From positions 1-42,893 of the forward strand of contig CAYXHB010000001.1 in the NCBI GenBank assembly GCA_964464795.1: a stretch of DNA of 42,893 nt. Direction: 5' to 3'. The stretch is from an uncultured Gammaproteobacteria bacterium. GTDB lineage: Bacteria; Patescibacteriota; Microgenomatia; CAYXHB01. Shown in pieces: positions 2,121-28,892 of this stretch (position 1 is the first letter of the stretch; every line of letters starts with the position of its first letter). The position numbers were made by a program, and so were the translations under genes. Below the pieces are notes generated by a model. That model did not search any database, was not told the origin of the DNA, and saw only the letters and a list, made by a program, of their open reading frames with translations.

Positions 2121-2164
2121 GGGGGAAGAATTAGGAATTAAGAAAAAAGAATTACAGAGAATAT

Positions 2165-2340: not shown

Positions 2341-2440
2341 GGTTGGGAGCAGCCAGAAAGTGTCGTTAAGATGAACTAATTGGCAGATAGAGGTTTTTGG
2401 ATTATAATAGGCAGAGTTATTTTCTTTAAAGAGAAAAATT

Positions 2441-2680: not shown

Positions 2681-2746
2681 GGAAAGTAAAGGAAACATAC
2701 TTGTAGGAAGAGATAGAGGTCATCTATACTGGGAAGTGTTCCTGCC

Positions 2747-3316: not shown

Positions 3317-3319
3317 AAT

Positions 3320-15267: not shown

Positions 15268-15285
15268 GCTTATTTATAAAACTAG

Positions 15286-15357
15286 CGTCGCTACGGGGAT
15301 TCGAACCCCGGTTACATGGATGAGAACCATGCGTCCTAACCACTAGACGATAGCGAC
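15286..15357 (-). tRNA. tRNA-Glu (anticodon CUC)
   Basis: The reverse complement folds as a cloverleaf: acceptor GTCGCTA/TAGCGAC, D arm GTCT-AGTGGTTA-GGAC, anticodon arm CATGG-TTCTCAT-CCATG, T arm CGGGG-TTCGAAT-CCCCG. No encoded CCA. Confidence 0.9.
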
Positions 15358-15384: not shown

Positions 15385-15424
15385 CCAAAAAAGCCTTAGG
15401 AGAAAAATTAATCTCGAAAGGCTT
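15385..15424 (-). terminator. Candidate intrinsic terminator after the pilin gene
   Basis: On the minus strand, AAGCCTT, a 20-nt loop and AAGGCTT are followed by TTTTT. It lies 9 nt downstream of the pilin stop. The loop is long, so this is tentative. Confidence 0.4.
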
Positions 15425-15432
15425 GATTGGGG

Positions 15433-15861
15433 TTAACGCAAGACGGTTATATACTCGCCTGGGTTAAGTTCACTTGAAGCTGAAGCTACAATTCTACCGT
15501 TGGCGTCTCGGAAAATTGTATAGCCTGTGTTGGCTTCAGTTCCGTCAACCGGATCCATAGGGATGGCTGGAATATAAGTAGGAACTAATTCGTCACTCAA
15601 GTCGACTCCAGCAGTACCTAACTGGCCTGGAGTAGTAGTAATGTCAGTTGGAGCATTGCCGTCGTTTTCAACTGTGTATTGATATATGGCGTTGACAACC
15701 TGATAGACGTCATTGCGCCTTTGGGTGTCACGGGCGTTAGCGAATTGACGGAGAGGATTGACAGCTACAAGCACGACTGCGGCTAAGATAGCGATAATTC
15801 CAATTACGACCATCAATTCGATAAGGGTAAACCCGCGTTGTTTTGTATTGGTTTGATTCAT
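15433..15861 (-). CDS. Type IV pilin / pseudopilin (prepilin-type N-terminal cleavage/methylation domain)
   Basis: 'KQRG|FTLIELMVVIGIIAILAAVVLVAV' class III signal peptide. I prefer ATG at 15861, with GGGAGG upstream, over the TTG at 15885 used by the ORF track. Confidence 0.9.
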   Translation of the reverse strand: MNQTNTKQRGFTLIELMVVIGIIAILAAVVLVAVNPLRQFANARDTQRRNDVYQVVNAIYQYTVENDGNAPTDITTTPGQLGTAGVDLSDELVPTYIPAIPMDPVDGTEANTGYTIFRDANGRIVASASSELNPGEYITVLR

Positions 15862-15917
15862 GGGCAGATGGTCACCTCCCTTCAAGATATGATTTATCTG
15901 CCCTTAGCGCGAGATAA

Positions 15918-16172
15918 TTACGGCGTCTGGGCAGACTCACTTGTTTCCAGCGTAACAGAGCTATCTGGGACTGTCAAACGGTCTTGGGTAGCAAACTCCA
16001 CTGCGTCTTCAATTTGCTTAGGGCTTAGTTCGATGTTTTGGGTTGAGGGAACTTCCTGAGGTTTGGTTTGAGACAGTTGGATGTACATAAGCCAAAAGCT
16101 AACTCCCCCGACTATCAGCCAAGTGATAATGGTGAGAAAAATGGGAAGGTTTTGTTTAATTTGTTTGAACAT
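15918..16172 (-). CDS. Small single-pass membrane protein inside the pilus operon, hypothetical
   Basis: 84 aa with TM helix 'LPIFLTIITWLIVGGVSFWLM'. Overlaps the PilO-like gene end by 17 nt. Confidence 0.5.
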   Translation of the reverse strand: MFKQIKQNLPIFLTIITWLIVGGVSFWLMYIQLSQTKPQEVPSTQNIELSPKQIEDAVEFATQDRLTVPDSSVTLETSESAQTP

Positions 16173-16788
16173 AGAGTTTACCTTTGAGAGTAGCTTTGAC
16201 TGAGTTTTCCGGCTCTGGTCTAATAGCTAAATCAACATCTTGAGGCGTATAAACCAAACCTCCAGCAGTCAGGTCGTCGAGCAACTTCTCTACCTCTGTA
16301 ATACTAGCAGCAGTGAAAGTAATAGTAACAGGCAGGAAAGGAAACTGCTCTCCTTGGCCGAGTACCGGAGCATTGGTGTCAAAACGGAGTTGGGGGTCAG
16401 GGAAGGCTGATAAACGATGGTTGATGCGTTCAATTACCCCAATGAGTTGTTGTTCTGAAGGGAAAACTTGATTAATGGTGTCTAGTTCATCTTGGTATTG
16501 GGTTTGGAGTTGCTGAATTTGAGCAGCAGAGGCTTGTTGTTTACGCAGGTTCTCCCCTGCTGCGTGGCGTTTGATGACTTCTGAAGTGAGCTGATAGAAA
16601 CCTAAAATCATGCCAATGAAAAGGAGGACTAGCATGATAGAAATAAGCAGACTTAAATTCTGAGGTTTGGGCGGCGGTGAAACAGCCGGAGTCTTGGTTT
16701 CGGACGGTGCGGGAGCTTGAGTTTGAGGAGACGATGGCTCCTCTTGCTTGGGGGCTTGAGTTGGAGGAGGATTGGAGGTAGCGTTCAT
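16156..16788 (-). CDS. PilO-like pilus assembly protein
   Basis: Start re-set to ATG 16788, 2 nt after the upstream stop at 16793-16795. Pro-rich N-terminus, TM helix (LLISIMLVLLFIGMILGF), coiled coil (QIQQLQTQYQDELD), C-terminal alpha/beta domain. Confidence 0.6.
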   Translation of the reverse strand: MNATSNPPPTQAPKQEEPSSPQTQAPAPSETKTPAVSPPPKPQNLSLLISIMLVLLFIGMILGFYQLTSEVIKRHAAGENLRKQQASAAQIQQLQTQYQDELDTINQVFPSEQQLIGVIERINHRLSAFPDPQLRFDTNAPVLGQGEQFPFLPVTITFTAASITEVEKLLDDLTAGGLVYTPQDVDLAIRPEPENSVKATLKGKLYVQTN

Positions 16789-16792
16789 AGGA

Positions 16793-18142
16793 TTATTGAT
16801 TGGAAGATTGGAGGTTAAGAGTAATTGTAAAGGGAACTGGTTGTCTTTGTTCGAAAACAGATAACGGCAACCTGACTTCGTTAAAAACTTCACTTTCGTC
16901 CAGGGCCGACTGGAAAGCGAAAACATCGGCTTGATTCGGGGCAACTCCGACGACAACTAAAGATTCTGTGGCGAGAACGAAGCGCATGCTGCTAATAGTT
17001 ATTTGAGGAGGGAGGCTCTGGTTAACTGCCTGGATAGCATGAAAAGCACTGCGACGGGCACGTGACTGGTTAATCAAGTTTATCTGAGCCTCTGACTTAT
17101 GGAATTGTTCTGATAACGCTTGCAAGTCAGCAGCCGGAGGAGCAACTGGACGCGAGTTACTGTAGGCTTGCCAGGCAAGAAAAATGAAGTAAGCGGCTAG
17201 GAAATTGAGGAGCAGCAAGGCCCAAGCACTGAGTGAAAAAATCCGTTTACGGCCATTGGAGTTACTAACGCTTGTGTAATCAATGTGGTATTGGGTAGGG
17301 ACTAAGTTGATGGTTTGACGGTCTTGAGGTGGAGCAACTGGTTTACTGGCTACGGAATCAATAAAAGCAGTTTGGGAAGAGGGGAGGATTTTGGCAGGGA
17401 AACTAAGTTTGAGTGCTGAGGCAACTTGCTCTGCTAATGAGCCAATGACGTAAACATGGGTAATTTCGAGGTTGTTTTTCTTGTGATAGTAATTGAGCAT
17501 TTGAGTGGCGACGGCGGCCACGTTGTCGACTTCTGAAACTACTGAAACTAGGTCAATAACATTTTTTTGGTTACTGACAACCAGCACTGACTCGGCTTCG
17601 GCTTCGATAATCAGGCCAGGGAGTTCTTGGGTGGAGATTATCCGGCAGAGAACCATGCTGGGAGTATCAATATCAACCACTTTGACTCCGTGAGAGCGCA
17701 AGACGTCAACATATTGCTCAAGAGGGGCCCGCGGGGCGGCGACGACCTGTAAGGTGGTAATAGGAGCTTCTTCTTTGATAATCTGCCAGTCGATAATCAT
17801 TTGCTCAGGCGGCAGAGGTAAGTAGTTTTGGACTTGCCAAAGAACGGTTTCGTGCATTTCCTGAACAGGAGAGGTTATTTCTACTAACCGAGTGAGGATG
17901 CTGGATTCGGGAATACAGATGGTGACTCCTTGTCCAGGACTCCAGCCTGAGGTAATCTCTTTAATGGCCGGGTCAGTGGAAAGATGGGAAAAGTCAGTTA
18001 TAGTTTCAGGTGCGAGAGTGGCCTGTCTGTAAGTTTTTTTGGACTGGGTTTTGGCAATAATTTGGCTACCAGTAAAACGGATTGCTTGTTTACTGATATA
18101 AAATTTAGTGTTGGATGAGGGCGATTTTGGAGTTTTGTTCAT
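16793..18142 (-). CDS. PilM-PilN fusion protein (actin-like ATPase-fold PilM domain, TM helix, PilN-like domain)
   Basis: The N-terminal ~270 aa resemble PilM. These are followed by 'INLVPTQY' (PilN INLLP-like), a TM helix 'IFSLSAWALLLLNFLAAYFIFLAW', and a periplasmic-type domain. Confidence 0.7.
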   Translation of the reverse strand: MNKTPKSPSSNTKFYISKQAIRFTGSQIIAKTQSKKTYRQATLAPETITDFSHLSTDPAIKEITSGWSPGQGVTICIPESSILTRLVEITSPVQEMHETVLWQVQNYLPLPPEQMIIDWQIIKEEAPITTLQVVAAPRAPLEQYVDVLRSHGVKVVDIDTPSMVLCRIISTQELPGLIIEAEAESVLVVSNQKNVIDLVSVVSEVDNVAAVATQMLNYYHKKNNLEITHVYVIGSLAEQVASALKLSFPAKILPSSQTAFIDSVASKPVAPPQDRQTINLVPTQYHIDYTSVSNSNGRKRIFSLSAWALLLLNFLAAYFIFLAWQAYSNSRPVAPPAADLQALSEQFHKSEAQINLINQSRARRSAFHAIQAVNQSLPPQITISSMRFVLATESLVVVGVAPNQADVFAFQSALDESEVFNEVRLPLSVFEQRQPVPFTITLNLQSSNQ

Positions 18143-18151
18143 AGGGAAAAT

Positions 18152-19366
18152 TTAGCCGCCTTGTTGTTGGAGGCCGCCGACAAGACTATAGATTGGACCA
18201 ATAATTGAGACAACCATAATTCCCACCGCGACTCCAACCATAAGTAGTAAGACAGGTTCGATAATGTTGGCAAAATTATTGAGGATATCCTCTACTTCAT
18301 TATCATAATACTCGGCTGAGTCTTTGAGCATGGTTTCCACAGAACCGGTTTTTTCACCGGCCGCAACCATGCGGACAGTGATTTGAGGGAATAGCTTGGG
18401 GTAACCCCGCATGAGGTCAGCTAAGGAGATACCTTTTTGCAGTTCTAAATGGAACGGCGCGACAGCTTTTTGATAGGTAGCTTGATTGAGGGATGTGGTG
18501 ACAATTTGCATGGCCTGGTTAATCGGCACGCCGCTGGCAAGCAGAGTACTCAAGATGCGGCAGAAACGAGCTAAATCAAGATAATTAAGCAAGCGCCTGA
18601 TGGCTGGAATGACTTTGACTGTGGCGAGGGTGATTTTTTTGCCCAGGGCTGTTGTGAGAAAAATAACCAAACCAACAAATCCAGCTAAAATGGCTGGCAA
18701 AATGAAAATAATGTTGTCACTGACGAATAAGCCTACCTGCATAATTAGTCGGGTGTAAAAAGGTAAACTGACTCGCATACTTAAGAAAACCGGAGCCATG
18801 CGAGGGAGGACGAAGAAGAGTAACAACATCCCGACTCCTAACATAGCAATTACAATGATAATCGGGTACATGAGAGCGCTTTTGACTTTTTGGCGGAGTT
18901 TGTATTCGTCGTAGAGAAAGTCGGCTAAGTAAGTCAGGGATTCGTTCAAAGTCCCTGATAACTCCCCTGCTTTGATTAAAGCAATGATAATAGGGTCGAA
19001 AACTTTGGGGTATTGTTCAAAGGCGGTGGAGAGGTTTTTGCCCTGTTGCAACTGGGTGTAGGTGGTAGAGAGAATTTCTTTGAGCTTGGCGTTGGATGTG
19101 TCGTGGGCAAAAACATCGACTGACTCGGGTAACGATAATCCTGCACTTAACATAGTGGCTAGGTAACGACAGAGATTGGCTTTTTCAATTAAAGGAACGG
19201 AGTTGCCCCATTTTTTGTTTTTTTTGGTGGAGACTTTCTTGAGCCAGACGATTTTGAAGCCTTGGCCTTGGAGTTCTTGTTTAGCACTGTTACTATCGGT
19301 GGCGTTGAGAGTGTCTTGGACAACTTGTCCTTGGGGGGTGGTGACTCGGTATTCAAAGGTGGCCAT
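18152..19366 (-). CDS. pilC: Type IV pilus inner-membrane platform protein PilC (T2SS F family)
   Basis: Duplicated GspF-type domains, 3 TM segments, 'AGEKTGSVETML' motif. Start set at ATG 19366 (MATFEYRV...), which avoids overlap with pilB. Confidence 0.9.
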   Translation of the reverse strand: MATFEYRVTTPQGQVVQDTLNATDSNSAKQELQGQGFKIVWLKKVSTKKNKKWGNSVPLIEKANLCRYLATMLSAGLSLPESVDVFAHDTSNAKLKEILSTTYTQLQQGKNLSTAFEQYPKVFDPIIIALIKAGELSGTLNESLTYLADFLYDEYKLRQKVKSALMYPIIIVIAMLGVGMLLLFFVLPRMAPVFLSMRVSLPFYTRLIMQVGLFVSDNIIFILPAILAGFVGLVIFLTTALGKKITLATVKVIPAIRRLLNYLDLARFCRILSTLLASGVPINQAMQIVTTSLNQATYQKAVAPFHLELQKGISLADLMRGYPKLFPQITVRMVAAGEKTGSVETMLKDSAEYYDNEVEDILNNFANIIEPVLLLMVGVAVGIMVVSIIGPIYSLVGGLQQQGG

Positions 19367-19385
19367 GTGATTTTGGGATGGGAAA

Positions 19386-21074
19386 TTAATCTTGTTCTTT
19401 AACTGCGCGCAGGACTTCTTCGACAGTGGTGAGTCCGGCGGTGACTTTATCAAGACCGTCCTCAATCATGGTAGTCATGCCTTGTTTTTGAGCCAGTTCT
19501 AAGATGTTATCGGCAGAAGCGTTGTCGACGATGAGTTTACGAATGTCCCCGTCAATTTCGAGAACTTCGTAGACACTAATCCGACCGCGGAAACCTGTAT
19601 TGCCGCATTCGTGACAACCGTGACTGCGGAAAGTAGTGACTTTTTTGATTTGAGGGCGATACTTGCCAAAGACCTCGGTAGCCGTGGGGTCGTCAGCGAT
19701 GCGGTAGATGCAAGATGGACACAGACGTCTGACTAAGCGCTGGGCCATGACCACATTGAGGGTGGAAGCGAGAAGAAAAGATTCTACGCCCATGTCGATT
19801 AGTCGAGGGATAGCTCCAACCGCACTATTGGTGTGAAGAGTGGAGAGGACCAAGTGACCGGTAAGGGAAGCGTGGATGCCCATTTCAGCTGTTTCTGTGT
19901 CGCGGATTTCCCCGACCATGATGATGTTGGGGTCATGGCGCAGCAAGGCTCGTAAGCCGGCCGCGAAAGTCAGACCTGTGGCCGGATTAACCTGAATTTG
20001 ATTAACCCGATGGATGCCGTATTCAATAGGGTCTTCGACTGTACAGATATTGACTGCCGTGGTGTTGAGCATGTTGAGGATACTGTATAAAGTGGTGGTC
20101 TTACCTGAACCCGTAGGGCCGGTAACCAGGAGCATGCCGTGAGGGCGGGTGATGTTGTGACGGATAATTTCCAAAGCGCCGCCGCTCATGCCTAATTCCG
20201 ATAAACTCAAAGGGCGGGCTGATTCGAACAACATCCTCATGACGATGTTTTCGCCGTAGAAGGAAGGGATGATAGAAACTCGCAGAGCAATAGACTGGTC
20301 AGCATAGGAAAATTTGAAACGGCCGTCTTGTGGGACGCGGTGTTCGTCTATCTTGAGCTGGCCTAAGATTTTGATGCGGGCGACGATAGCGGGTTGGATT
20401 TGTTTGGGTAGAGCAATGATGTCACGCAAGTTACCGTCGATGCGAAAACGAATCATTAGGGCGTTATTGAGAGTTTCGACATGAATATCCGAGGCACGCT
20501 CAGCAATAGCGTACTCAAGAATAGTGTCGAGAATTTTAACGACCGGTAAATCTGAGGCTACCTTGGTAATGTCGGTTTGGGTGCGGGCAGTGGATTTTTT
20601 GATATTTTCGGATAAGATATCGGCGAAGACTTTCTTGATACCTTTTTTGTATTGAGTGAGAGCTTGAGTGAGGTCGTTAGGGAGAATGTAGTAAGGGATG
20701 ATTTTGAGCTTGGTGGCGCGGCGGGCAATTTCTTGGGATTCGAAGTTTTGCGGGTCGGTGAAAGCGATGGAGATTTCAGTGTCAGTTTTTTCGAAAGGAA
20801 TAATCTGATAAGAACGAGCTTGGTTTTCTGGAACGGTTTCGAGGACTTCTAGTGGGATGCTTTTGGTTTTGAGAGTGATAAAAGGCACTCCTTGAGCCTC
20901 AGCAATTAACTGACCCAAAGCCTGCTCGGAAATAATGCCGCGGAAAATGAGAATATCCTCAATAGGACGCTCTAGTTCGTCGGCAGCCTCTTTGGCCGAG
21001 AGGTAGTCGGCTTCGGATACGAAACCTGAGTTAACCAGGATGTCTTGTAAATTGGCGGGCAGATGGGATGACAT
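19386..21074 (-). CDS. pilB: Type IV pilus assembly ATPase PilB (GspE family)
   Basis: T2SSE N-terminal domain, Walker A 'GPTGSGKTT', Asp/His boxes, tetracysteine 'CPSC...CHEC'. Confidence 0.93.
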   Translation of the reverse strand: MSSHLPANLQDILVNSGFVSEADYLSAKEAADELERPIEDILIFRGIISEQALGQLIAEAQGVPFITLKTKSIPLEVLETVPENQARSYQIIPFEKTDTEISIAFTDPQNFESQEIARRATKLKIIPYYILPNDLTQALTQYKKGIKKVFADILSENIKKSTARTQTDITKVASDLPVVKILDTILEYAIAERASDIHVETLNNALMIRFRIDGNLRDIIALPKQIQPAIVARIKILGQLKIDEHRVPQDGRFKFSYADQSIALRVSIIPSFYGENIVMRMLFESARPLSLSELGMSGGALEIIRHNITRPHGMLLVTGPTGSGKTTTLYSILNMLNTTAVNICTVEDPIEYGIHRVNQIQVNPATGLTFAAGLRALLRHDPNIIMVGEIRDTETAEMGIHASLTGHLVLSTLHTNSAVGAIPRLIDMGVESFLLASTLNVVMAQRLVRRLCPSCIYRIADDPTATEVFGKYRPQIKKVTTFRSHGCHECGNTGFRGRISVYEVLEIDGDIRKLIVDNASADNILELAQKQGMTTMIEDGLDKVTAGLTTVEEVLRAVKEQD

Positions 21075-21083
21075 AGAGTTTGT

Positions 21084-21485
21084 TTAAGTGTCAGACTCGG
21101 GTTTAGAACCCTTGGGTGAGGGTTTGATATATTTATGGACAACTTCAATTATTTGACTGGGGGTTAGTTTGGCCTTGATAAGGAATTCGTTGGCGCCCAT
21201 GTCTAGAGCGGCTTTTTGTTCTTCTTCCTGGTTGAGATTGGAGAGACAAATTACAGGAGTGGATTTGGTTTGGCGGGTGGAGCGGATTTCCTCCAAGACA
21301 TCCAGTCCGTTCATACGCGGCAGCATGATATCCAGCAGAATGACATCAGGTTCTTGAGAGATAGCCTGCTCAAGAGCTGACTGGCCGTCTGTACAAGTGA
21401 TGACCTCATGTCCATCTTGCTGAAGATGGGTTGAATAAATCTTGATTAGGAAAGCATCGTCGTCGGCGATGAGAATTTTGGACAT
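21084..21485 (-). CDS. Single-domain response regulator (CheY-like receiver only)
   Basis: 'KILIADDD...DVILLDIMLPRMNG...ICLSN...GANEFLIK'. Start set at ATG 21485. No output domain. Confidence 0.9.
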   Translation of the reverse strand: MSKILIADDDAFLIKIYSTHLQQDGHEVITCTDGQSALEQAISQEPDVILLDIMLPRMNGLDVLEEIRSTRQTKSTPVICLSNLNQEEEQKAALDMGANEFLIKAKLTPSQIIEVVHKYIKPSPKGSKPESDT

Positions 21486-21489
21486 TAAA

Positions 21490-21702
21490 TTACTGTTTAT
21501 TTGATAATTGATAAATATGGTTTTTGAGTGATTCGATCTCTTCAAGGAGAGCGGCTGACTCATTGGTGGCAACTTGTAGCAATTCGTTAGGTTGGGACTG
21601 GGTTTGCTCAAGTTCCCAGAGTGCGGTTCTGATTTTGGTTATACGAGCAAGGATTTGGTGAAAAACTATATGAGTATCGTCTATAGGATGATGGCTGGTC
21701 AT
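21490..21702 (-). CDS. Small helical hypothetical protein between the two receiver genes
   Basis: 70-aa ORF whose stop lies 4 nt before the downstream receiver start. Heptad-like sequence (LWELEQTQ...LLEEIESLKNHIYQL). No clear SD, so coding status is uncertain. Confidence 0.4.
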   Translation of the reverse strand: MTSHHPIDDTHIVFHQILARITKIRTALWELEQTQSQPNELLQVATNESAALLEEIESLKNHIYQLSNKQ

Positions 21703-21759
21703 AATTACATTGTACTCAATAACGGCAAGTTACTGCTAGCCCTGGAAGGAGAGGCAATA

Positions 21760-22137
21760 TTACTCAAGCAAGCGGGTTACTTTGGCAAGAAACTGATCGG
21801 GGTTAAGGTCTGACTTGATAATGACGCTATCAACGCCTAAATTTTTACCTTCTGTGAAAATACCATCATGGGATAAGTTGGTCATATAGACAATCTTATG
21901 ATTGGGTTGTTTGGGTGGATGAGATTTGACATCTAGAAGCACGCTGCGGCCGTCCTTCTCAGGGAGCATGACGTCCAGTAGAACTAGATCATAACCGCCT
22001 TTTTTCATGGCTGCGGCTGCCTGGTCGCCGTCAATGGCTACATCAACTGCGTAGCCTGCCTCGGTGAGAACATCAAAGTAAATCTCACGCAAGAATTCTT
22101 CGTCTTCGACCAGGAGGATTTTTTTTTGTGCGGGCAT
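21760..22137 (-). CDS. Single-domain response regulator (CheY-like receiver only)
   Basis: 'KILLVEDEEF...DLVLLDVMLPEKDG...'. 125 aa, no output domain. Confidence 0.9.
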   Translation of the reverse strand: MPAQKKILLVEDEEFLREIYFDVLTEAGYAVDVAIDGDQAAAAMKKGGYDLVLLDVMLPEKDGRSVLLDVKSHPPKQPNHKIVYMTNLSHDGIFTEGKNLGVDSVIIKSDLNPDQFLAKVTRLLE

Positions 22138-22175
22138 ACGACTTCACTATGGCACACTGGGAATTTTTTTTCAAT

Positions 22176-24332
22176 CTAAAAAATAGCCTTGGTGGGCAAG
22201 CTGAAATAGAAAGTGGAACCTTTACCAAGTTTTGATTCAACCCAAATTTGGCCACCGTGTTTTTTGATAATCTGATTACAGATAAAGAGCCCAAGGCCAG
22301 TGCCGCCGGATTCAGCTACACTGACCAAAGTGCCCTCAAGGCGGCCGAACTTGGTGAAGAGCTTGGGCAAGTCTTTCTTAGAAATCCCCTTGCCTGTATC
22401 CGAGATGGCTGTCTGGACAGCGTTTTTCTCGGCCGTGAAACTAATATCAATTCTGCCGCCAATAGGCGTGAACTTGATGGCGTTACCAATTAAGTTAATA
22501 AAAACCTGATGAAGTTTGTCAGGGTCAGCATTGACGAGTTTGGGGGCTGGAGATTGAAGGGTGATGGTGATGTTTCTCTGTGTGGCTTGGGATTGTAGTT
22601 CATCGAGGGCTATCTTGGCTCTGGCGCTTAAATCAAGCTGAGCTGCGTGCAGCTCAATCCTGCCGGCTTCAATACGGGAAACGTCCAGCATGTCGTTGAC
22701 CAGAGCTAAAAGCCGGTCCGTGGATAAATAGGCTCTGTCTAGGTATTGGCGGCTTTTTGGGCTAATTGTGTCACCATTATTGGATTTGTTAAGAATCATC
22801 CATAGATAACTCTTGATAGCCGTCATGGGAGTGCGCAGTTCGTGCGAAGCAATGGAGAGAAATTCGTCTTTGATCTTGTCCAGTTCAGTCAAACGTTTGT
22901 TAGCCTCGCGCAGGTCGGTGGTAGCTGATTTTATTTCTTGTTTGAGTCTGATATTAAAGTTGCTAATCTCAAGGAAAGAACGGGCGTTTTGGATGGCGAT
23001 AGCCAGTTCTGGCGCCAGAATCTGAAGCAGCTGAATATCCTGGTCTGAGTAAATATCGCCTGAGGACTTTTCGCCTAAAATTAGTTGGCCGACGTATTGA
23101 TGTTTAAAGGTTAGCGGGACGATCACGCCAATATGATATTCGCGCATGATTTGTTTGATGTGGTTCTCTGGTAACTCTTCAAAAACCAAGATTTTTTTTG
23201 TATTGGCTGAGAAAAGCTGGGCGTATCTCTCCAGATCATAGAGACTTTTGGCTCCATCTCGGCCCAAAATATTAATCTTAGTATGACCACTGCTCTCAAG
23301 CAAAACAACAAAGGCTATCTCAGTTCTGAGGTTGGTTTTGAGCTGGAAGATGGTTTTTTTTATTAAATCTTCCAGGTCGATGTTGACGGAAATTAACCGA
23401 TTTAGGTGAGTTAACAACTCTTGAGTGTCATATCTGCCTTTGAACAAAAAGCGGTCAGTGAGGTGTTCGATGTACTTGCGCAAAGGTTGAAAAGTGTAGG
23501 CAAGAACCAAAGCCAAGGCGGTGGAAATACCGAATTGATCGCTATTGAGCTGACTCGGAAATAGATAACGACCAAGAACAAACAGCATTGAAGCGTAAAA
23601 GCTCGAGAGAATGAAAATTAACAAAGTGTAAGAAACAGTACGAGCAACAACTAATCGAACTTCCATCACACGATGCCTGACAATGGCATAAGCAATGATG
23701 ATATTAAAAACAAGTACATAAATGGGGAGAAAAGGAACAAAATAGCCAATTTTAAAAAAAACAACCAACAGGAAATTAAAAATTAGAATGAGTGAGAATA
23801 AGACAAAAAATCCTAGAAAAACTAGGCTGAGCTTACGCTTTTCTATTTTTTTAGCTTTGCGATAATGAAGGTAGATAATAATTAAACCGCTAAGGACTGT
23901 AAGGATAGTGTGGATGAGAAAAATCGGCATGCCAATTCCAGGCTCAGGAATGACTAGGTTTTCTGGAGTGATCTGGACATCTTTGAAGATAAAGTTCGTG
24001 AAGCCAAGGAAAAACAGTGCTATTGAGCTAACGATTATTGGATATTTAACTGAATTGCGAATAGTAATTTCGTCTTGAGGAAAAGTGACAAGGAAGAAAA
24101 AGACAGCGGCGTTAATGAGAGCCCCGAGGGAGATAATGAGTTTGGATAAAAATATTTTTATATTAACGCCAGGAATTAAATATAGCTCGCTATTGACGAC
24201 TAAGTAGACCGTGATTATCCCTAATAGAATTGTGAAGAGTTTGTTAGTCCAACTTTTGGGATTATTACGATAAATAAGAAGAGCCAGGATTAAATTTCCC
24301 AAAGCAAAGATGGCAAGAAGAACGTGTTGCAT
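22176..24332 (-). CDS. Sensor histidine kinase: N-terminal 7-8 TM sensor region, GAF-like domain, HisKA, HATPase_c
   Basis: About 260 aa of TM helices. GAF-like block (EIAFVVLL...YVGQLILGEK...LLQILAPELAIAIQNA). H-box 'FLSIASHELRTPMTAI'. N, G1 and G2 boxes (NLIGNAIKFT, DTGKGI, GGTGLGL). Confidence 0.9.
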   Translation of the reverse strand: MQHVLLAIFALGNLILALLIYRNNPKSWTNKLFTILLGIITVYLVVNSELYLIPGVNIKIFLSKLIISLGALINAAVFFFLVTFPQDEITIRNSVKYPIIVSSIALFFLGFTNFIFKDVQITPENLVIPEPGIGMPIFLIHTILTVLSGLIIIYLHYRKAKKIEKRKLSLVFLGFFVLFSLILIFNFLLVVFFKIGYFVPFLPIYVLVFNIIIAYAIVRHRVMEVRLVVARTVSYTLLIFILSSFYASMLFVLGRYLFPSQLNSDQFGISTALALVLAYTFQPLRKYIEHLTDRFLFKGRYDTQELLTHLNRLISVNIDLEDLIKKTIFQLKTNLRTEIAFVVLLESSGHTKINILGRDGAKSLYDLERYAQLFSANTKKILVFEELPENHIKQIMREYHIGVIVPLTFKHQYVGQLILGEKSSGDIYSDQDIQLLQILAPELAIAIQNARSFLEISNFNIRLKQEIKSATTDLREANKRLTELDKIKDEFLSIASHELRTPMTAIKSYLWMILNKSNNGDTISPKSRQYLDRAYLSTDRLLALVNDMLDVSRIEAGRIELHAAQLDLSARAKIALDELQSQATQRNITITLQSPAPKLVNADPDKLHQVFINLIGNAIKFTPIGGRIDISFTAEKNAVQTAISDTGKGISKKDLPKLFTKFGRLEGTLVSVAESGGTGLGLFICNQIIKKHGGQIWVESKLGKGSTFYFSLPTKAIF

Positions 24333-24361
24333 ACTACTATCATAGCTGTTTATGTAGTACG

Positions 24362-25432
24362 TTAGTCAATTGTTTTCAATGACTTGGGAATATCAAGGAA
24401 AGCGCGGTAAGAACGAGTGTCTTTTTGAAGTAAGATTTGTTCGACTGCATGAGTAACGACAACTGATAAAAGTTGCGACGCAATAATTAGTTGTGGGTAA
24501 CTGGTGAGAGTTGAGCCTACTTCATAAACCGAATTGAGCATTTTGGGCGAATGTAACTCTTTGCCGATCATTTGGATGAAAAATTCAGTCACGTCTTTCT
24601 TAGTAATTGTGGCTTTCTTCAAATCTGCGGGATTGAGCTTGTTTAAAAACAAGTCAGTGGTCAAGTTTTGGTCTATGTCATATCGTTCTACAATGAGCAA
24701 GATACCTTTTTCTATATCGGCACCCGAAACTACTGGAATTCCAAGTTTTTTGGCATATTGGCGTAGTTTGAGTTTGAGTGGAAAACTATCAAAAGCATCA
24801 ATTACGACCTTGACGTTGCTTAAAAAGGCAGATAAATTTTTACTGTTAAGACCTTGGGGGAAGATGTTGATCGTCAAGTATGGGTCAATTTCGTGAAGTT
24901 CTGTTTGAACAACTTTAGTTTTGGGTTGGTATAGATGAGGAAGAGAAAAAGTGGCTCGGTTGAAGTTGCTTATCTCTACCTGGTCGTAGTCAGCTAAGTT
25001 GTATTCACGGCCTACACCATAACGGACAAGAGCATTGGCAATATTTTTCCCACTGCTAAGGCCAGCGATGGCGATGGTTGAATTATGGATTTGCTGTAAT
25101 TCTTGTGCTGTTAACAGATTTAAGTTGCGACAAGTTCGTAATTCAAAATATTGACGTTCCTCGAGTAAATGAAGCAGCAAGTTGTGACTAGGATAGTGAA
25201 CCCATCTCCCTTGAAGGTTTCGCTGTTTAATAGATGAAAGTGCAGGGTGGTGCTGGAAAATTATTTTCTGCTGCTCAGCAGGCGTGAAGGAATAATATTG
25301 AGGATTTTTGAAAATAAACCAGTCTTGGAACATTTCTAAATAATTGTCTTTTATTTCAGTTTGCTTGGGCAATCTGTCTATTAAGTTGGATAATTCTGTT
25401 TGAGAATTTAGTTGATAGACTTTGTGGTTCAT
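24362..25432 (-). CDS. ThiF/MoeB/E1-like adenylyltransferase-family protein with an N-terminal extension
   Basis: 'RWVHYPSHNLLLHLLEERQYFELRTCRN' precedes a Rossmann block 'IAIAGLSSGKNIANALVRYGVGREYNLADYDQVEISNFNR', which matches the E1-like nucleotide-binding pattern. Confidence 0.7.
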   Translation of the reverse strand: MNHKVYQLNSQTELSNLIDRLPKQTEIKDNYLEMFQDWFIFKNPQYYSFTPAEQQKIIFQHHPALSSIKQRNLQGRWVHYPSHNLLLHLLEERQYFELRTCRNLNLLTAQELQQIHNSTIAIAGLSSGKNIANALVRYGVGREYNLADYDQVEISNFNRATFSLPHLYQPKTKVVQTELHEIDPYLTINIFPQGLNSKNLSAFLSNVKVVIDAFDSFPLKLKLRQYAKKLGIPVVSGADIEKGILLIVERYDIDQNLTTDLFLNKLNPADLKKATITKKDVTEFFIQMIGKELHSPKMLNSVYEVGSTLTSYPQLIIASQLLSVVVTHAVEQILLQKDTRSYRAFLDIPKSLKTID

Positions 25433-25433
25433 A

Positions 25434-26837
25434 TTAAATGAAGTGTTTTAGTTTGGTGTTTTTGTACTTGTCGTGATTGGCTTCCTCGGAACGGTAAATA
25501 AAATTGATGCCGCTTCCGCGAGTGTGTTCTTGTGTGACTCTATAATCGGCGTTTATTCCTTTGAGCATGGCGAAGAATTCTTGTTCAAATTTCTCTTGGT
25601 CAGTTTTTTTGAGTCTCTGATGGGGTTTAAAGTAAAGAATGACCTGAAGGCGATTTTTCATACCACTAGTGTTGACGACTCCGTACTGGAAGTTTTGAGA
25701 GAAAAGAGAAGCATAACGTGAGTTTTGGATGCAATGCCGAATATCCTCTGTATAGACATTGGCGGAATTAATTAAAATTGAATCTGTCCGACCGTGGACA
25801 AAAAGTAAGTTATCTGGCAACTGATCCTTGGAAATACGAATGCCTAATTCTCTACATAACTCCCTTATTTGATGTTGAGTAAGAATTCCGCCGCGATCGT
25901 GAATGTTATATCTTATTAAAGGAATCGGCTGATCGGCCGTGATGACAATTTCGTCTTTGATAACTTCAATATGTTTTGATAAAGGATTGTATTCAACTAA
26001 GGATGGAGTGCTTTGAGAGTGAAAATATTTTTTTATGAGAGCTGGCCGAGATTGAATTTTTTGGAGTATCTTAATAGAAAGCGGAGTTTCCACTCCTATG
26101 ATGCCGGTATCTGAGCAGGCGTACATACCAATAATGTCTATCCTTGATTGAGGTGAATTAACTTTTGCTTTTAAAGCTGAACGCCAGTGCTCTGAAAACC
26201 TATCTCCTGTCAAGATAAATTTGAGATTTAAATTCGCAAATGGTAATTCTTTCTCGGTCATTTCTTCAATTAAATCGGTAACGAGAGGCGGATACCCGAT
26301 TATAATGATTTGATCGTAGAATCGGTATAACTCTCTGATGGCAGTGGTGGCGTTATGAACATTCATGCCTGGAGTGACAATGGTGATCTTATTAGTTCTG
26401 GCAGCAGCAATGGCGAGCATAGTTTCTAGGATTCCACCGATCCACATACCAAGAGCCAAGGTATTTACTATTAAGGTCCTCTGTTTTGATATATCAAAGA
26501 ACTGTTCATAAAAGACTATTTTTCCAGGAATAATCTGGTCGTCGATAGACTGATCTCTTAACCACAAAGTGGGATTTCCAGTTGATCCCGAACTTGTGGT
26601 GATCAAATAATAGTCCGAAAGTTGCTTATTATCGCGAATCCGTTGATGAACGGGATACTTATTGAGGTAATTACGTCGATCTGTGATGGGAAGTAAGGAA
26701 AAGTCTTGGACTGTTTTGAGTTCAGGAATTTTAATCTTGTTTTTTTTAAGAAATTGGGAATAAGCTGAACAGTTATCTGCAACTGATTTAAATAAATTGA
26801 AGGCTTTTTCTAAAGGAAGATCTGCGTTATTTTTCAT
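25434..26837 (-). CDS. PaaK / coenzyme F390 synthetase-like adenylate-forming enzyme (aryl/acyl acid ligase)
   Basis: 'TTSSGSTGNPT' (SSGTTGKP-type AMP motif), 'NTLALGMWIGGILE', and a 467-aa size match the phenylacetate-CoA ligase family. Overlaps the upstream lyase by 11 nt and ends 1 nt before the E1-like start. Confidence 0.75.
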   Translation of the reverse strand: MKNNADLPLEKAFNLFKSVADNCSAYSQFLKKNKIKIPELKTVQDFSLLPITDRRNYLNKYPVHQRIRDNKQLSDYYLITTSSGSTGNPTLWLRDQSIDDQIIPGKIVFYEQFFDISKQRTLIVNTLALGMWIGGILETMLAIAAARTNKITIVTPGMNVHNATTAIRELYRFYDQIIIIGYPPLVTDLIEEMTEKELPFANLNLKFILTGDRFSEHWRSALKAKVNSPQSRIDIIGMYACSDTGIIGVETPLSIKILQKIQSRPALIKKYFHSQSTPSLVEYNPLSKHIEVIKDEIVITADQPIPLIRYNIHDRGGILTQHQIRELCRELGIRISKDQLPDNLLFVHGRTDSILINSANVYTEDIRHCIQNSRYASLFSQNFQYGVVNTSGMKNRLQVILYFKPHQRLKKTDQEKFEQEFFAMLKGINADYRVTQEHTRGSGINFIYRSEEANHDKYKNTKLKHFI

Positions 26838-28491
26838 ATTCTTTCAGAGAGACGGATGACTCAAAGAGGTCGGTAAAGTCAAACAATTTGTTTGATAGTT
26901 CTTCTACATATTGACCTAGAGGCTGCTCTACTTTAATAAAAGGAACTATCTTTCGTATGAGTTCATAAACAGGCTGGGTTTGCGGCGAGAGCAAGTGTGG
27001 TCCGCCTCGCAAATCTACGGCCTGCGCTGCTGCCATAGCGTTGGTGGCAATAGATAGCTTGGCTAGTTTAATAACTTCTCTGGTCATAATAGCTGAGGCC
27101 GGTGCTTGCGAAGTAATATCTTGATTGTGTTCTTCATGAACCCCAAACATAGTGTTAATCGGAACACTAAGAGCAGTGGCGTAGACTTCAAGCATGCCCA
27201 TTTGGGTCTGTAGTCCTTTGAAAGTACACTGAGTGACCGCGTGTGGCGAGGAAAGGTTTGCAGGCAGACCTCGAGAGAATTTCGGGTTTACCAGGCGAGA
27301 TAAATGACGGTCATTTTGCTTAACTATCAAAGTACCTACTTTGCGCAGCGCATCTAAGGTATCGGCCATGTGCATCGCAAGAAAATTGCCTCCACTTACC
27401 CACTGATATGGCTCTTCGTTTTCAAAGACGTGTTCGTTAGTTGTCCAAAGAGGATTGTCAGAAACGCTATTAGCGTTAATGGTAACTGTTTCCCACGCTT
27501 GGGATAAGCGTTCCCACGATGGCCCAAAGTATTGTGGGAGGCAACGCAAGCTATAGGGGTCCTGGGTTTCGTCTCCATTTTGGTGTTGATGCTTTAGCAA
27601 ATCCTGTTGGGATAACTGGCTGCCCAAAAGTGAATTCCTGAGGATGGCAGAAACATATTTTTGGCCAGCATGAGGTCTAACGTTAGACAAAAAAGGATGA
27701 AAACTACGGACCTTACCATGCAAAGCTTGAATAGTAAGTGAAGAGATAAGTAAGTTGATAACAAACAAGCAACTTAAGTCATATAAGGCAAAGGCAGCTG
27801 CTGCAGTCGAAAAGTTATCACCGTTTGCAAGAGCCAATCCTTCTTTGGGTGCCAAAGTAATTGGAGAAATTCCATATTTATCTTGCAACTCGGTGGACGT
27901 AATTACACGGCCGCGATTGTTTGTCAACTTAGCAGTAGGATGTTGAAGCAAAGTGGAAATAATTCGGCCATTTTGAGCAAGATCACCAGATGCGCCGACG
28001 GATCCATATTCACCGACAATTGGAGTAAGACTTTTATTTAATAAATTGATTACTGACTGGAGTATCTCACTGCGGATACCAGAATATCCTGAGGCCAACA
28101 TATTTACACGAACAAACATCGCTGACCTCACAATCTCTGTGGGAATAGCATTACCAGTTGAAACGTCAATATGGACGATAGCATTTGAGATATCTCTGGC
28201 CTGATTAATGCGAGACTCTTTTGCTCCTTGGTTGAGGACGCGGGCACTTTGGCCTCCATAGGAACCTGTAACTCCGTATATGGCTTGCCCGTTTTCAATT
28301 TGTTTTTTAATTTGTGAAATTATTTCATTGTTTTGACTTGCAACATGCGGGTCAAGATTGATGGAAACGGGAGTTTTATCCCGACCTACGGCAACTATCT
28401 CCGGGATGCTAGTTTGTTTAGCTCCGTCAATAATAATCTGTGACGAACCACGACGGTGGACAATTTGACTAATAAAATCGTTTTGTTTCAT
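26827..28491 (-). CDS. MIO-dependent aromatic amino-acid ammonia-lyase or aminomutase (HAL/PAL/TAL family), divergent
   Basis: Ala-Ser-Gly MIO triad in 'GSVGASGDLAQNG' (codons at 27985-27993). 'IYGVTGSYGG' catalytic-Tyr loop. 'SVSDNPLW'. 'NQDITS' (QEDHVS-like). Confidence 0.88.
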   Translation of the reverse strand: MKQNDFISQIVHRRGSSQIIIDGAKQTSIPEIVAVGRDKTPVSINLDPHVASQNNEIISQIKKQIENGQAIYGVTGSYGGQSARVLNQGAKESRINQARDISNAIVHIDVSTGNAIPTEIVRSAMFVRVNMLASGYSGIRSEILQSVINLLNKSLTPIVGEYGSVGASGDLAQNGRIISTLLQHPTAKLTNNRGRVITSTELQDKYGISPITLAPKEGLALANGDNFSTAAAAFALYDLSCLFVINLLISSLTIQALHGKVRSFHPFLSNVRPHAGQKYVSAILRNSLLGSQLSQQDLLKHQHQNGDETQDPYSLRCLPQYFGPSWERLSQAWETVTINANSVSDNPLWTTNEHVFENEEPYQWVSGGNFLAMHMADTLDALRKVGTLIVKQNDRHLSRLVNPKFSRGLPANLSSPHAVTQCTFKGLQTQMGMLEVYATALSVPINTMFGVHEEHNQDITSQAPASAIMTREVIKLAKLSIATNAMAAAQAVDLRGGPHLLSPQTQPVYELIRKIVPFIKVEQPLGQYVEELSNKLFDFTDLFESSVSLKEYEK

Positions 28492-28508
28492 AGAGTCTAC
28501 AAAAATTA

Positions 28509-28514
28509 ATTATA
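28509..28514 (-). promoter_or_regulatory. Candidate -10 box (TATAAT) for the lyase-led minus-strand array
   Basis: Perfect TATAAT on the minus strand, ending 17 nt upstream of the lyase ATG (28491). No convincing -35. Confidence 0.3.
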
Positions 28515-28541
28515 CTGGAAAACTCATATTAAGCTTGTATT

Positions 28542-28550
28542 TGATATAAT
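28542..28550 (+). promoter_or_regulatory. Extended -10 promoter (TGATATAAT) for RNase P RNA
   Basis: TGnTATAAT ends about 7 nt before the first helix of the RNase P RNA. Confidence 0.45.
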
Positions 28551-28557
28551 TACATTT

Positions 28558-28862
28558 ATGGATCGGGGTGCGGGATAAAATCCGCATTCAGGAAAGTCCA
28601 GACAGCATGAAGCACGGCGAGGTAGGTAACTACCTTCCCCGATGAAAATTGGGGCGAGTCAGAGCCACAGAGACGAGTAATGTGAAACGGCTCCGGTGCA
28701 AATCGGAGTGCCGACTCTCTAGAGGGGAGTGGGCGGCAATCCTCCCGGCTGCAAGTTCCGAGTTTCGCGTTACGAGGCGCTTCACCCAAGGACTGTAAAG
28801 TCCACGCGAAGAAGAGAACGCACCAGACAGATGATCCATCAAGACAGAATCTGGCTTATATA
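28558..28862 (+). ncRNA. rnpB: RNase P RNA (bacterial type A-like, compact); ends uncertain by about 15 nt
   Basis: Universally conserved blocks on the + strand: 'CAGGAAAGTCCAGACAG' (CR-I), 'GTAATGTGAAACGGCTCCGGTGCAAATCGGAGTGCC' (J11/12-P12 region), 'AAGACAGAATCTGGCTTAT' (CR-V/P4 3' strand). P2 pairing ATGGATC (28558-) with GATCCAT near the 3' end. P3 hairpin GCGGGATAAAATCCGC. Confidence 0.85.
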
Positions 28863-28870
28863 TTTTCTAT

Positions 28871-28892
28871 CCCCGCTTAATTATTTGCGGGG
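28871..28892. terminator. GC hairpin between convergent rnpB and the AI-2E transporter gene (possible bidirectional terminator)
   Basis: CCCCGC-N10-GCGGGG. The transporter stop codon (28881-28883) sits in the loop. No flanking U-run, so weak. Confidence 0.3.

Follow-up and report, generated by a model that had tools for sequence, protein, structure and literature searches.

An exchangeable enzyme and sensor cassette at the head of a type IV pilus gene array in Patescibacteria

We describe an array of thirteen consecutive minus-strand genes, beginning with an aromatic amino acid ammonia-lyase and ending with a type IV pilin, in a 42,893-nucleotide contig from the Patescibacteria (CAYXHB010000001.1; the whole contig is referred to as the window). 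The first part of this array is exchangeable. Between relatives, the promoter region, the lyase, an adenylate-forming ligase, a ThiF-like enzyme, and the first 212 residues of a sensor histidine kinase are replaced as one block. The remainder of the kinase, two receiver proteins, and the pilus genes are conserved. With moderate confidence, we propose that the array joins a variable input module to a conserved output module. The former would comprise a self-made ligand and its cognate seven-transmembrane (7TM) sensor; in the latter, receivers would control the pilus motor. Note that all thirteen open reading frames (ORFs) were found where an earlier note on this DNA had placed them. The cassette, and the four genes that it involves, are as follows.

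23694..28585, minus strand: exchangeable cassette (promoter region, lyase, ligase, ThiF-like cyclase, and kinase residues 1-212)
26827..28491, minus strand: aromatic amino acid ammonia-lyase, dependent on methylideneimidazolone (MIO); PF00221, E=2.6e-113
25434..26837, minus strand: PaaK-fold adenylate-forming ligase, 467 aa; NCBIfam PaaK, 8e-12; Protein Data Bank (PDB) PaaK2 2y4o, 3e-4
24362..25432, minus strand: predicted ThiF-like ATP-dependent cyclase; PF00899; NCBIfam NF005901 'Rv1355c family'
22176..24332, minus strand: sensor histidine kinase, 718 aa; HisKA_7TM, GAF-like, HisKA, and HATPase_c (Pfam)

Exchange of enzymes and sensor domain as one block

Exchange is apparent on comparison with L172, an 18-kb contig of a close relative that aligns collinearly with the window to either side of the cassette. 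On one side, recA through miaA, the AI-2E gene, and rnpB align at 66-84% DNA identity. This collinearity reaches window position 28586 and there is none across 23694..28585. The two sequences are collinear again from kinase residue 213, through receiver RR1, a 70-aa gene, receiver RR2, PilB-PilC, PilM-N, two small membrane proteins, and the pilin. Amino acid identities are 90% for PilB, 84% for PilC, 81% for the pilin, and 72% for AI-2E. The interval between is 4.9 kb in the window versus 2.4 kb in L172, where it holds a different 7TM domain and a single, unrelated, 488-aa enzyme (7823-9289). In the latter, the NAD(P)-binding Rossmann core weakly resembles ornithine cyclodeaminase/mu-crystallin and shikimate dehydrogenase (E 2.5e-6 to 4e-5), and the long N-terminal half is without assignment.

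The breakpoint falls within the kinase, for which window and L172 share 22% identity in residues 1-212 and 74% in residues 213-718. This protein matches PF16927 HisKA_7TM (33.2 bits; cut-off 28.6), HisKA (1e-17), and HATPase_c (1.8e-30), and has the H-box SHELRTP. Its layout is a 7TM bundle (residues 1 to ~220), a hinge, two or three further transmembrane helices, a GAF-like region (~303-428), a dimerisation and histidine phosphotransfer domain, and a catalytic domain. In an AlphaFold2 model (predicted local distance difference test, pLDDT, 79.9), seven helices occupy residues 2-220 and a low-confidence hinge spans residues 221-227. The breakpoint coincides with this hinge. It also coincides with the edge of a block of low G+C content (~23500-27000; 0.33-0.42, versus 0.43-0.50 around it) that extends from the 7TM region through the ThiF-like gene to the ligase and excludes the lyase. 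This composition suggests that the block was acquired separately from its surroundings. Note that the GAF assignment is marginal (PF01590, 22.8 bits, cut-off 22.4; the GAF_2 and GAF_3 matches fall short of theirs). The model has an alpha/beta unit at residues 303-428, of moderate confidence, and many homologs carry precomputed GAF matches. Kinases of this family are uniform in length, at ~710-745 aa.

A second pair of loci, L004 and L173, has the same pattern. The conserved parts are the kinase core (74% identity), the receiver (67.5%), PilB (73%), and PilC (65%). The divergent parts are the ligase (29.5%), the ThiF-like protein (29.6%), and the 7TM domain (29%). Across 30 kinases, all seven that are next to lyase-ligase-ThiF genes have a 7TM domain 40-52% identical to that of the window. 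This includes L008, despite a kinase core only 37% identical. For the other 23 kinases, 7TM identity is 21-32%, and these include examples with equal or higher core identity (L172, 76%; L173, 50%; L069, 47%). Spearman's rho was 0.67 (p=3e-4) for ligase versus 7TM domain and 0.49 for ligase versus kinase core. Given the mosaic pairs, and since the 7TM domain tracks cassette type, we conclude that the enzymes and sensor domain behave as one specificity block. The earlier note had taken the product or substrate of the three enzymes as the cue for the membrane/GAF kinase. Synteny and block exchange uphold the link to the kinase, but the part that co-varies is the 7TM bundle and not the GAF region.

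Further loci were collected by look-ups with ligase homologs, by a ligase-alignment search of 185,579 species genomes, and by a metagenome scan; gene content was compared by tblastn and ORF clustering. The metagenome scan, made with the same alignment, added little, the matches listed being mostly distant ligases without ThiF on short contigs. A ThiF-like gene lies beside the ligase in at least 46 independent loci, and the named records are predominantly from the Candidate Phyla Radiation (CPR)/Patescibacteria. Among the matches listed, a histidine kinase occurs within 8 kb in 35 of the 37 ligase and ThiF loci with enough flanking DNA, and the 7TM sensor is recognisably window-like in 26 of those 35. 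Conversely, a window-type sensor was found at only 3/42 of the listed ligase loci without ThiF. The recurrence of trio and kinase together, named as a test in the earlier note, is thus borne out. Similarly, three homologs of the kinase sensor, found independently of the enzymes, were used for reverse look-ups. An amino-acid-transforming enzyme was directly upstream in all three, with an adenylate-forming ligase also upstream in two.

These observations bear on whether the trio, the two-component system, and the pilus genes might be independent units, packed side by side in a small genome. Short intergenic gaps occur everywhere in small genomes, promoter-like sites are present at two internal junctions (with scans at chance level), and pilus adjacency is restricted to one lineage. 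Mere coincidence does not, however, sit well with a kinase at 35 of 37 informative loci, or with an upstream enzyme cassette in every reverse look-up. Nor would it account for exchange of enzymes and sensor domain as a block in two independent pairs, or for pilus adjacency that persists through three arrangements. Coincidental juxtaposition is, in our view, the least probable of the explanations considered here.

A more distant kinase of the same family, at L174 (4924-10229), comes after genes for a canonical AMP-binding ligase (PF00501) and an aminotransferase, and a ThiF-like gene is absent. Hence, the link between the kinase and adenylating plus amino-acid enzymes extends beyond the PaaK/ThiF version.

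Predicted chemistry of the cassette

The lyase is closest to cyanobacterial phenylalanine ammonia-lyases (PALs), and its nearest solved structure is Anabaena PAL 2nyn (1e-70). It keeps the Ala-Ser-Gly MIO triad (GASGD), the catalytic Tyr loop (IYGVTGSYGG), and YSLRCLPQ. At the Phe/His selectivity switch, His107-Ile108 of the lyase aligns with Phe107-Leu108 of AvPAL. The switch His is kept in 12 related cassette lyases, and in all cassette lyases of the tyrosine ammonia-lyase (TAL) type. We take His at this position, from work on RsTAL, to specify tyrosine; the meaning of the residue was reportedly established by Louie and by Watts in 2006. On these residues, the lyase is predicted to be a TAL making 4-coumarate, and aminomutase activity is also possible. 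There is, in addition, a match to NCBIfam FlxA (2.7e-57). A role in histidine utilisation was rejected: the nearest structures are PALs, the switch is His-Ile and not Ser-His, and hutU/hutI genes are absent.

Across related loci, the first enzyme of the cassette is interchangeable. It can be a TAL-type or histidine ammonia-lyase-type lyase, a class I/II aminotransferase, a Glu/Leu/Phe/Val (ELFV) dehydrogenase, or a prephenate dehydratase. The lyases of L012, L016, and L029, in Saccharimonadales- or Parcubacteria-type cassettes of ligase, ThiF, oxidase, and kinase, have a Ser-His switch and a Thr-Ser-Gly triad, and so are of the histidine-lyase type. Those of Microgenomates-type cassettes all have His-(Ile/Val/Thr) and Ala-Ser-Gly. 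Such residue differences point to different chemistry for each cassette type.

The ligase gave no match in a Pfam search. Its AlphaFold2 model (pLDDT 87.2) has BT_0428, PaaK1/2, ClxA, and AjiA1 as top Foldseek matches (E ~1e-21 to 1e-17); for PaaK1/2 and BT_0428, E is ~1e-21 and the template modelling score is 0.55-0.70. ClxA and AjiA1 are aryl-acid adenylating enzymes. The adenylation site is intact, with the P-loop SSGSTGNPT, Asp314 (adenine/ribose), and C-terminal catalytic Lys462 invariant across the family. From the model, we predict a PaaK-fold enzyme that activates an aryl acid. It is not phenylacetate-CoA ligase itself, since it scores 44 bits against a PaaK equivalog cut-off of 646. 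FlxY is matched weakly and at the N-terminus only (1.8e-5). The ligase family is broad, with members in CPR bacteria, Actinoplanes, cyanobacteria, and Chloroflexi.

The third protein had been labelled E1-like. It does belong to the ThiF/E1 family (PF00899) but is better read as an oxazolone-type ThiF cyclase than as a ubiquitin-like activator. The match to NF005901 covers profile positions 59-342 of 722 (E=1.5e-61, 208.6 bits); among generic ThiF/MoeB models, none exceeds 85 bits (84.9 for the next ThiF model). The whole-protein cut-off for NF005901, 476 bits, is missed because the oxidase half is absent. Both the Arg finger (SNFNRA) and the adenylation Asp (DAFDS) are present, and a saccharibacterial ortholog matches the Rv1355c family at 7.6e-89. 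By these comparisons, the protein specifically resembles the N-terminal (cyclase) half of TrzS (Rv1355c). The best sequence match in the PDB is 9egb, for which our literature search found no paper. Experiments have shown that TrzS, TyzB, and OxzB cyclise N-acyl aromatic amino acids to oxazolones in an ATP-dependent reaction (PMC12856293, PMC10404671, PMC12596934). Briefly, TrzS converts N-acyl-tryptophan to an oxazolone, using ATP and O2 (PMC12856293), and TyzB/TyzC and OxzB perform the same chemistry on N-acyl-tyrosine (PMC12856293, PMC10404671, PMC12596934, bioRxiv 10.1101/2020.06.11.147165).

In relatives of the window, the ThiF-like gene and the kinase are usually separated by a gene for an Acg-family FMN (flavin mononucleotide) oxidoreductase of ~330 aa, which is close to the ThiF-like gene in at least 20 related loci. 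Its family score is 216 bits (cut-off 199), and it aligns with positions 374-650 of Rv1355c. Since the ThiF-like gene matches the N-terminal half of Rv1355c, the two are together a split TrzS. In all CPR loci, the PaaK-fold ligase is adjacent to the ThiF-like gene, where an acyltransferase would be.

A ThiF-like homolog in Rhodococcoides trifolii (L170, 2404-8215; 33% identity) is found beside EAL and GGDEF genes and a flavoprotein. By analogy, this neighbourhood echoes the cyclic-di-GMP genes of Mycobacterium tuberculosis, where trzAS adjoins signalling genes (GGDEF/EAL; PMC12856293).

Two other roles for the ThiF-like protein were rejected. For a ubiquitin-like or sulfur-carrier E1, a beta-grasp partner is missing, and the TrzS-family score is far above those of the generic ThiF/MoeB models. 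For defence, such as an E1/E2 (Cap2) system of the cyclic oligonucleotide-based antiphage signalling (CBASS) type, PADLOC detected only a generic E1 core (best match 1.2e-10, 38 bits), with no E2, JAB, or effector.

It is also conceivable that the ThiF-like enzyme and ligase modify a carboxylate of the pilin, kinase, or receiver, with the kinase being a target or docking partner. Peptides or proteins are the substrates of most ThiF-like enzymes characterised so far (PMC12596934). Furthermore, the module is next to pilins in several loci and co-variation could reflect a protein-protein interface. Such modification is nonetheless improbable. The small-molecule cyclase TrzS is by far the closest relative, the cassette has no small beta-grasp or precursor-peptide gene, and there is no conserved C-terminal Gly-Gly on the kinase, receivers, or pilin. 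In Saccharibacteria, the core module occurs without pilins.

Receivers, pilus genes, and limits of the array

The remaining nine genes of the array are listed below.

21760..22137, minus strand: stand-alone receiver RR1, of the module-associated type; PF00072, 8.8e-17
21490..21702, minus strand: 70-aa helical protein between the receivers; ortholog at the same position in L172 (11992-12204)
21084..21482, minus strand: stand-alone receiver RR2, immediately upstream of pilB; PF00072, 2.6e-25
19386..21074, minus strand: PilB-type assembly ATPase; PF00437, 2.3e-132, plus MshEN
18152..19366, minus strand: PilC platform protein; PF00482, 1.3e-58, two repeats
16793..18142, minus strand: PilM-PilN fusion (weak); Pfam PilN, 9.4e-5, and PilM_2, 4.6e-4; PDB PilM 3jc8, 1.8e-4
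16156..16788, minus strand: Pro-rich protein with a single transmembrane helix, in the PilO position, 210 aa; 61% identical ortholog in L172
15918..16172, minus strand: 84-aa protein with a single transmembrane helix; L172 ortholog 49% identical, E=1e-20
15433..15861, minus strand: type IV pilin; N_methyl motif, 2e-10; 81% identical in L172

Both receivers keep the acidic pocket, Asp, Thr/Ser, and Lys. As the earlier note had observed, neither has a DNA-binding output; in Pfam searches, both are receiver-only. Orthologs of RR1 adjoin the lyase module in L001, L003, and L166-L169, and RR1 is 75% identical in L172. For RR2, identity in L172 is 83%. A receiver is found directly before pilB in the window, L004, L167, L172, and L173; it is RR2-like in L004 and L173, and unclassified and truncated in L167. 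The 70-aa protein has no family match in Pfam or NCBIfam. It is 43-44% identical to its L172 ortholog (E=3e-13), with His11, His15, and a WELEQ motif invariant. Since the ORF is conserved at the same place in a relative, we conclude that it is a real gene. Speculatively, the product may be an adaptor or small phosphotransfer protein.

The array holds PilB, PilC, PilM/N (weakly assigned), and a prepilin with a class III signal; PilT, PilD, and a secretin are absent from it. The L172 ortholog of PilM-N carries PF11104. While most gene labels proposed earlier agree with family searches, 'PilO-like' is not verifiable by sequence. The 210-aa Pro-rich protein has no family or PDB match, and its identity as PilO could not be established.

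We next consider how often pilus genes accompany the module. Nine independent loci belong to the close clade, defined by a ligase at least 37% identical to that of the window. Pilus genes adjoin the module in seven of these, and three arrangements are seen. The module is upstream of pilB in L004 and L008 (as in the window), downstream of pilins in L001 and L167, and between pilC and pilins in L168 and L169. No pilus genes are near L003 or L166. Further pilus-adjacent cases are L065, L172, and L173. The last of these, reached through the kinase look-up, has no lyase yet carries pilB-pilC.

Upstream, the array is limited by an opposite-strand gene for RNase P RNA; downstream, its limits are a terminator hairpin and tRNA-Glu. 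These features, and a candidate promoter element, are as follows.

28547..28870, plus strand: RNase P RNA, bacterial class A; Rfam RF00010, 93.1 bits, E=4.2e-29, full model 1-367
28509..28514, minus strand: TATAAT hexamer, candidate -10 element; perfect, 17 nt before the lyase ATG
15385..15430, minus strand: terminator-like hairpin, then U6; free energy (dG) -19.6 kcal/mol, z=-5.0, 0/200 shuffles as stable
15285..15357, minus strand: tRNA-Glu(CUC), downstream boundary; ARAGORN and Rfam, directly after the hairpin

The 390-nt 'gap' upstream of the lyase is the site of this RNase P RNA gene, which fixes where the array ends upstream. The RNA scores below the Rfam gathering score of 100 and so was missed by the default scan at that threshold; it was recovered by a permissive scan. 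Model positions 284-303 are deleted in the window and, in folding tests of the region, the plus strand gave z=-3.45 versus z=-1.25 for the minus strand. Spurious ORFs of 70-86 aa overlap the gene, and default annotation would overlook the RNA. In L004, RNase P RNA is at 7813-8230 (minus strand), between AI-2E and the lyase, and scores 46.8 bits against the same gathering score.

Spacing within the array was recalculated from coordinates, and the range reported earlier (a 17-nt overlap to 57 nt) was reproduced. Overlaps are 11 nt for lyase/ligase and 17 nt for the 210-aa/84-aa pair. Gaps are 1 nt for ligase/ThiF, 29 nt for ThiF/kinase, 38 nt for kinase/RR1, 57 nt (the largest) for RR1/70-aa gene, 7 nt for 70-aa gene/RR2, 9 nt for RR2/PilB, 19 nt for PilB/PilC, and 9 nt for PilC/PilM-N. 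The hairpin after the pilin, also noted previously, is real by folding. It was missed by a terminator scan because the stem is interrupted. Conversely, the assertion that this is the only terminator, and the TATAAT the only strong promoter element, is untenable; consensus scans, overall, are at chance level. On its own, the TATAAT hexamer is without significance. The consensus scan also found promoter-like sites at the ThiF/kinase junction (24396-24369) and in the kinase/RR1 gap (22174-22146). Since scan counts equal chance, they neither support nor refute a single operon.

Other genes of the window lie outside the array. One group, at 13113-15267, 10658-13054, and 7081-8919 (all plus strand), includes a pair formed by a 7TM_transglut protein (PF14402) and a sugar-transfer-associated ATP-grasp protein (PF14397). 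A DUF2298 membrane protein and a PMT_2 glycosyltransferase precede this pair, and the genes run towards the array, meeting it at its pilin/tRNA end. It is probably a separate cell-surface modification unit. The region 60-3982 (plus strand) encodes a 686-aa protein with three Laminin_G_3 domains, followed by a second PilN-like gene (2747-3316, plus strand; PF05137, 5.5e-9) and a 220-aa ORF without assignment. The region may belong to a second locus for pili or an adhesin.

Proposed circuit, competing explanations, and known systems

In the circuit that we propose, the lyase would convert L-tyrosine to 4-coumarate. The PaaK-fold ligase would adenylate this product and join the aryl acid to an amino acid or similar nucleophile. 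Next, the TrzS-type ThiF-like enzyme would adenylate the N-acyl-amino-acid carboxylate and cyclise it, generating an oxazolone-type (azlactone) product. Unsaturation would be introduced into the acyl part, by the lyase, and not into the amino acid part by a flavin oxidase. For each enzyme, we infer the chemistry beyond the family-level reaction. The product, or a pathway intermediate, would be the cognate ligand for the HisKA_7TM bundle of the adjacent kinase, acting from outside or within the membrane. Enzymes and bundle would evolve, and swap, as one specificity cassette, in parallel with agrB/agrD and the sensor half of agrC. The kinase core would phosphorylate both receiver-only proteins, possibly via the 70-aa His-containing protein. 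These would act at the protein level on PilB/PilC/PilM, and so gate pilus extension. The observed parts of this model are gene content, homologies, conserved neighbourhood, block exchange, and co-variation.

Several points weigh against the proposed circuit. First, co-variation is equally expected if the kinase senses a substrate, binds the product as a cofactor, or docks the enzymes. Second, a flavin oxidase is absent from the window (no tblastn match to the CPR oxidase and no Pfam domain of this kind among the ORFs), and no window ORF matches an acyltransferase family. The known pathways have an adjacent N-acyltransferase, OxzA/TyzA/TrzA, of AHL-synthase-like fold, as the source of the N-acyl amino acid. 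With both missing, the product may not be an oxazolone. Furthermore, we know of no PaaK-family enzyme that makes N-acyl amino acids. Third, no dedicated exporter is evident. An AI-2E-family transporter (28881-29873, minus strand) is directly upstream of rnpB and the cassette in the window, L004, L172, and L173, and could be an exporter of the product. However, since it is kept regardless of cassette type, this may be plain synteny with miaA/miaB. Fourth, short gaps are the sole argument for co-transcription of the array, and promoter-like hexamers are present at the ThiF/kinase and kinase/RR1 junctions. Fifth, the compared loci are phylogenetically related, so that counts overstate independence. 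Finally, in the scan set, pilus genes were within 10 kb of 0/30 ligase-ThiF loci lacking a lyase, which are mainly from Saccharibacteria and Parcubacteria. Set against 7/9 close-clade loci, this indicates that pilus coupling is persistent but limited to one lineage; the pilus link made in the earlier note holds with that restriction.

Of the alternatives, we rank sensing of a substrate second to the proposed circuit, though it is unlikely. Here, the 7TM kinase would sense an external aromatic amino acid or aryl acid from the host, the enzymes would merely convert or consume this compound, and pili would respond to proximity of the host. Sensor-enzyme co-variation fits a substrate-matched sensor as well as a product-matched one, all of the first enzymes act on amino acids, and episymbionts depend on host metabolites. 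Conversely, the ligase and ThiF cyclase are both ATP-consuming activating enzymes and look biosynthetic, and downstream catabolic genes are absent. Receivers without a DNA-binding output cannot induce a catabolic operon and tyrosine, being polar, would be an unlikely ligand for an intramembrane 7TM bundle.

Ranked third, and somewhat less likely again, is a cofactor or chromophore. A conjugated aryl-oxazolone-type molecule would stay bound in the 7TM or GAF region as a prosthetic group, and the kinase would sense light, redox, or membrane state instead of a diffusible signal. A TAL and aryl-acid ligase next to a sensor recalls the tal-pcl arrangement that supplies the chromophore of photoactive yellow protein (PYP), pili of cyanobacteria are steered by GAF photoreceptors, and the enzymes do co-vary with a binding domain. 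Tyrazolones absorb at 360 nm (bioRxiv 10.1101/2020.06.11.147165), and receiver-only control of PilB downstream of photoreceptors is known in cyanobacteria (PMC11181946). However, as the earlier note had cautioned for the GAF region, the kinase sensor is without any Cys, and no Cys is conserved across the family. A PYP-like thioester-linked chromophore was therefore excluded. Many cassette types are without a lyase or oxidase, and so have no obvious conjugated product. The L172 replacement, a single Rossmann enzyme like ornithine cyclodeaminase, is an unlikely chromophore maker. In addition, the related locus L039 (Nealsonbacteria) is from groundwater, a dark habitat. Protein modification, defence, and coincidence are ranked below these two and are unlikely.

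Returning to the proposed circuit, its elements can be compared with known systems. In the oxazolone pathways (OxzAB of Pseudoalteromonas rubra, TyzACB, and TrzAS of M. tuberculosis), the cyclase is of the same subfamily and the chemistry is derived from aromatic amino acids. The Acg/nitroreductase-superfamily oxidase beside the cyclase in many CPR loci, as a split TrzS, is a further likeness. The window differs in having a PaaK-fold ligase instead of an N-acyltransferase, and a tyrosine ammonia-lyase with no flavin oxidase. Moreover, the CPR module is coupled to a 7TM kinase and receivers, which are in no described oxazolone cluster. In staphylococcal agr, a hypervariable block of agrB/agrD and the sensor half of agrC defines specificity groups. 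Similarly, signal genes and the N-terminal membrane sensor half are here one hypervariable block, and the kinase core and downstream genes are conserved. The agr hypervariable region is mentioned in PMC6834553. Note that no part is homologous: the agr signal is a ribosomal thiolactone peptide rather than an enzyme-made small molecule, and its output is transcription, whereas regulators here lack a DNA-binding domain and the output would be a pilus machine.

The CqsA/CqsS system of Vibrio, and LqsA/LqsS/LqsR of Legionella, also place an amino-acid- or acyl-activating synthase beside a multi-pass kinase and receiver protein. In these systems, a hydrophobic small molecule is detected within the membrane by the adjacent kinase. 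The synthase is a pyridoxal phosphate-dependent acyl-CoA transferase, unlike the lyase, ANL ligase, ThiF cyclase, and HisKA_7TM fold found here. To our knowledge, block exchange of synthase and sensor domain has not been described for Cqs or Lqs. Pairing of tyrosine ammonia-lyase with an aryl-acid ligase is shared with PYP supply (tal and pcl beside pyp) and flexirubin FlxA/FlxY; in the PYP case, the tal-pcl pair adjoins a sensor protein. Unlike those systems, the array has no Cys, a PaaK-type and not 4CL-type (4-coumarate:CoA ligase) enzyme, a ThiF cyclase, and no polyketide machinery. Finally, PilG/PilH (Pil-Chp) and cyanobacterial PixG/PixH/PixE (with PilB1/PilC) are stand-alone or output-less CheY-like receivers, and two receiver-only proteins lie here between kinase and pilB. 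The known receivers contact proteins of the pilus motor to control it and, in cyanobacteria, receiver-only regulators bind PilB/PilC (bioRxiv 10.1101/2021.06.11.447907; PMC11181946). The array differs from Pil-Chp/Pix in having no CheA-type kinase, methyl-accepting chemotaxis protein, or PATAN domain; instead, a classical HisKA kinase with a 7TM sensor is the input.

The logic of a synthase with its cognate membrane kinase is already known from agr and Cqs/Lqs. What is new is the use of PaaK-fold ligase, TrzS-type cyclase, and HisKA_7TM parts, the host group, the proposed receiver-only pilus output, and the evidence for block exchange. Literature searches (E1-like/PaaK/histidine kinase, CPR-oxazolone, and HisKA_7TM) found no description of the module in CPR bacteria or elsewhere. 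The papers on N-acyl oxazolones describe their role as unknown and raise signalling as one possibility, without a known receptor (PMC12856293; bioRxiv 10.1101/2020.06.11.147165). The 7TM kinase, which co-varies with a TrzS-type cassette, is a candidate oxazolone receptor. If correct, this would provide the first receptor, and physiological role, for oxazolone-type metabolites. Exchange of enzymes with sensor is also a natural experiment, naming 212 residues expected to carry ligand specificity.

Type IV pili are central to episymbiosis and motility in Patescibacteria, and probably to DNA uptake, and the array is a testable path from input to output. A study of pili in Saccharibacteria names their regulation as an open question (PMC12206443). 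More tentatively, hypervariable enzyme cassettes and matching HisKA_7TM domains might constitute a widespread family of 'private-language' circuits in the CPR, not recognised before, that define pherotype-like groups. In one Microgenomates-type lineage, the circuit would gate pili and, through them, host attachment or DNA uptake. On this reading, no cell-cell or kin-recognition signalling system would have been known earlier from ultrasmall episymbionts. If this is confirmed, organisms with very reduced genomes would still invest in self-made, diversifying chemical signals.

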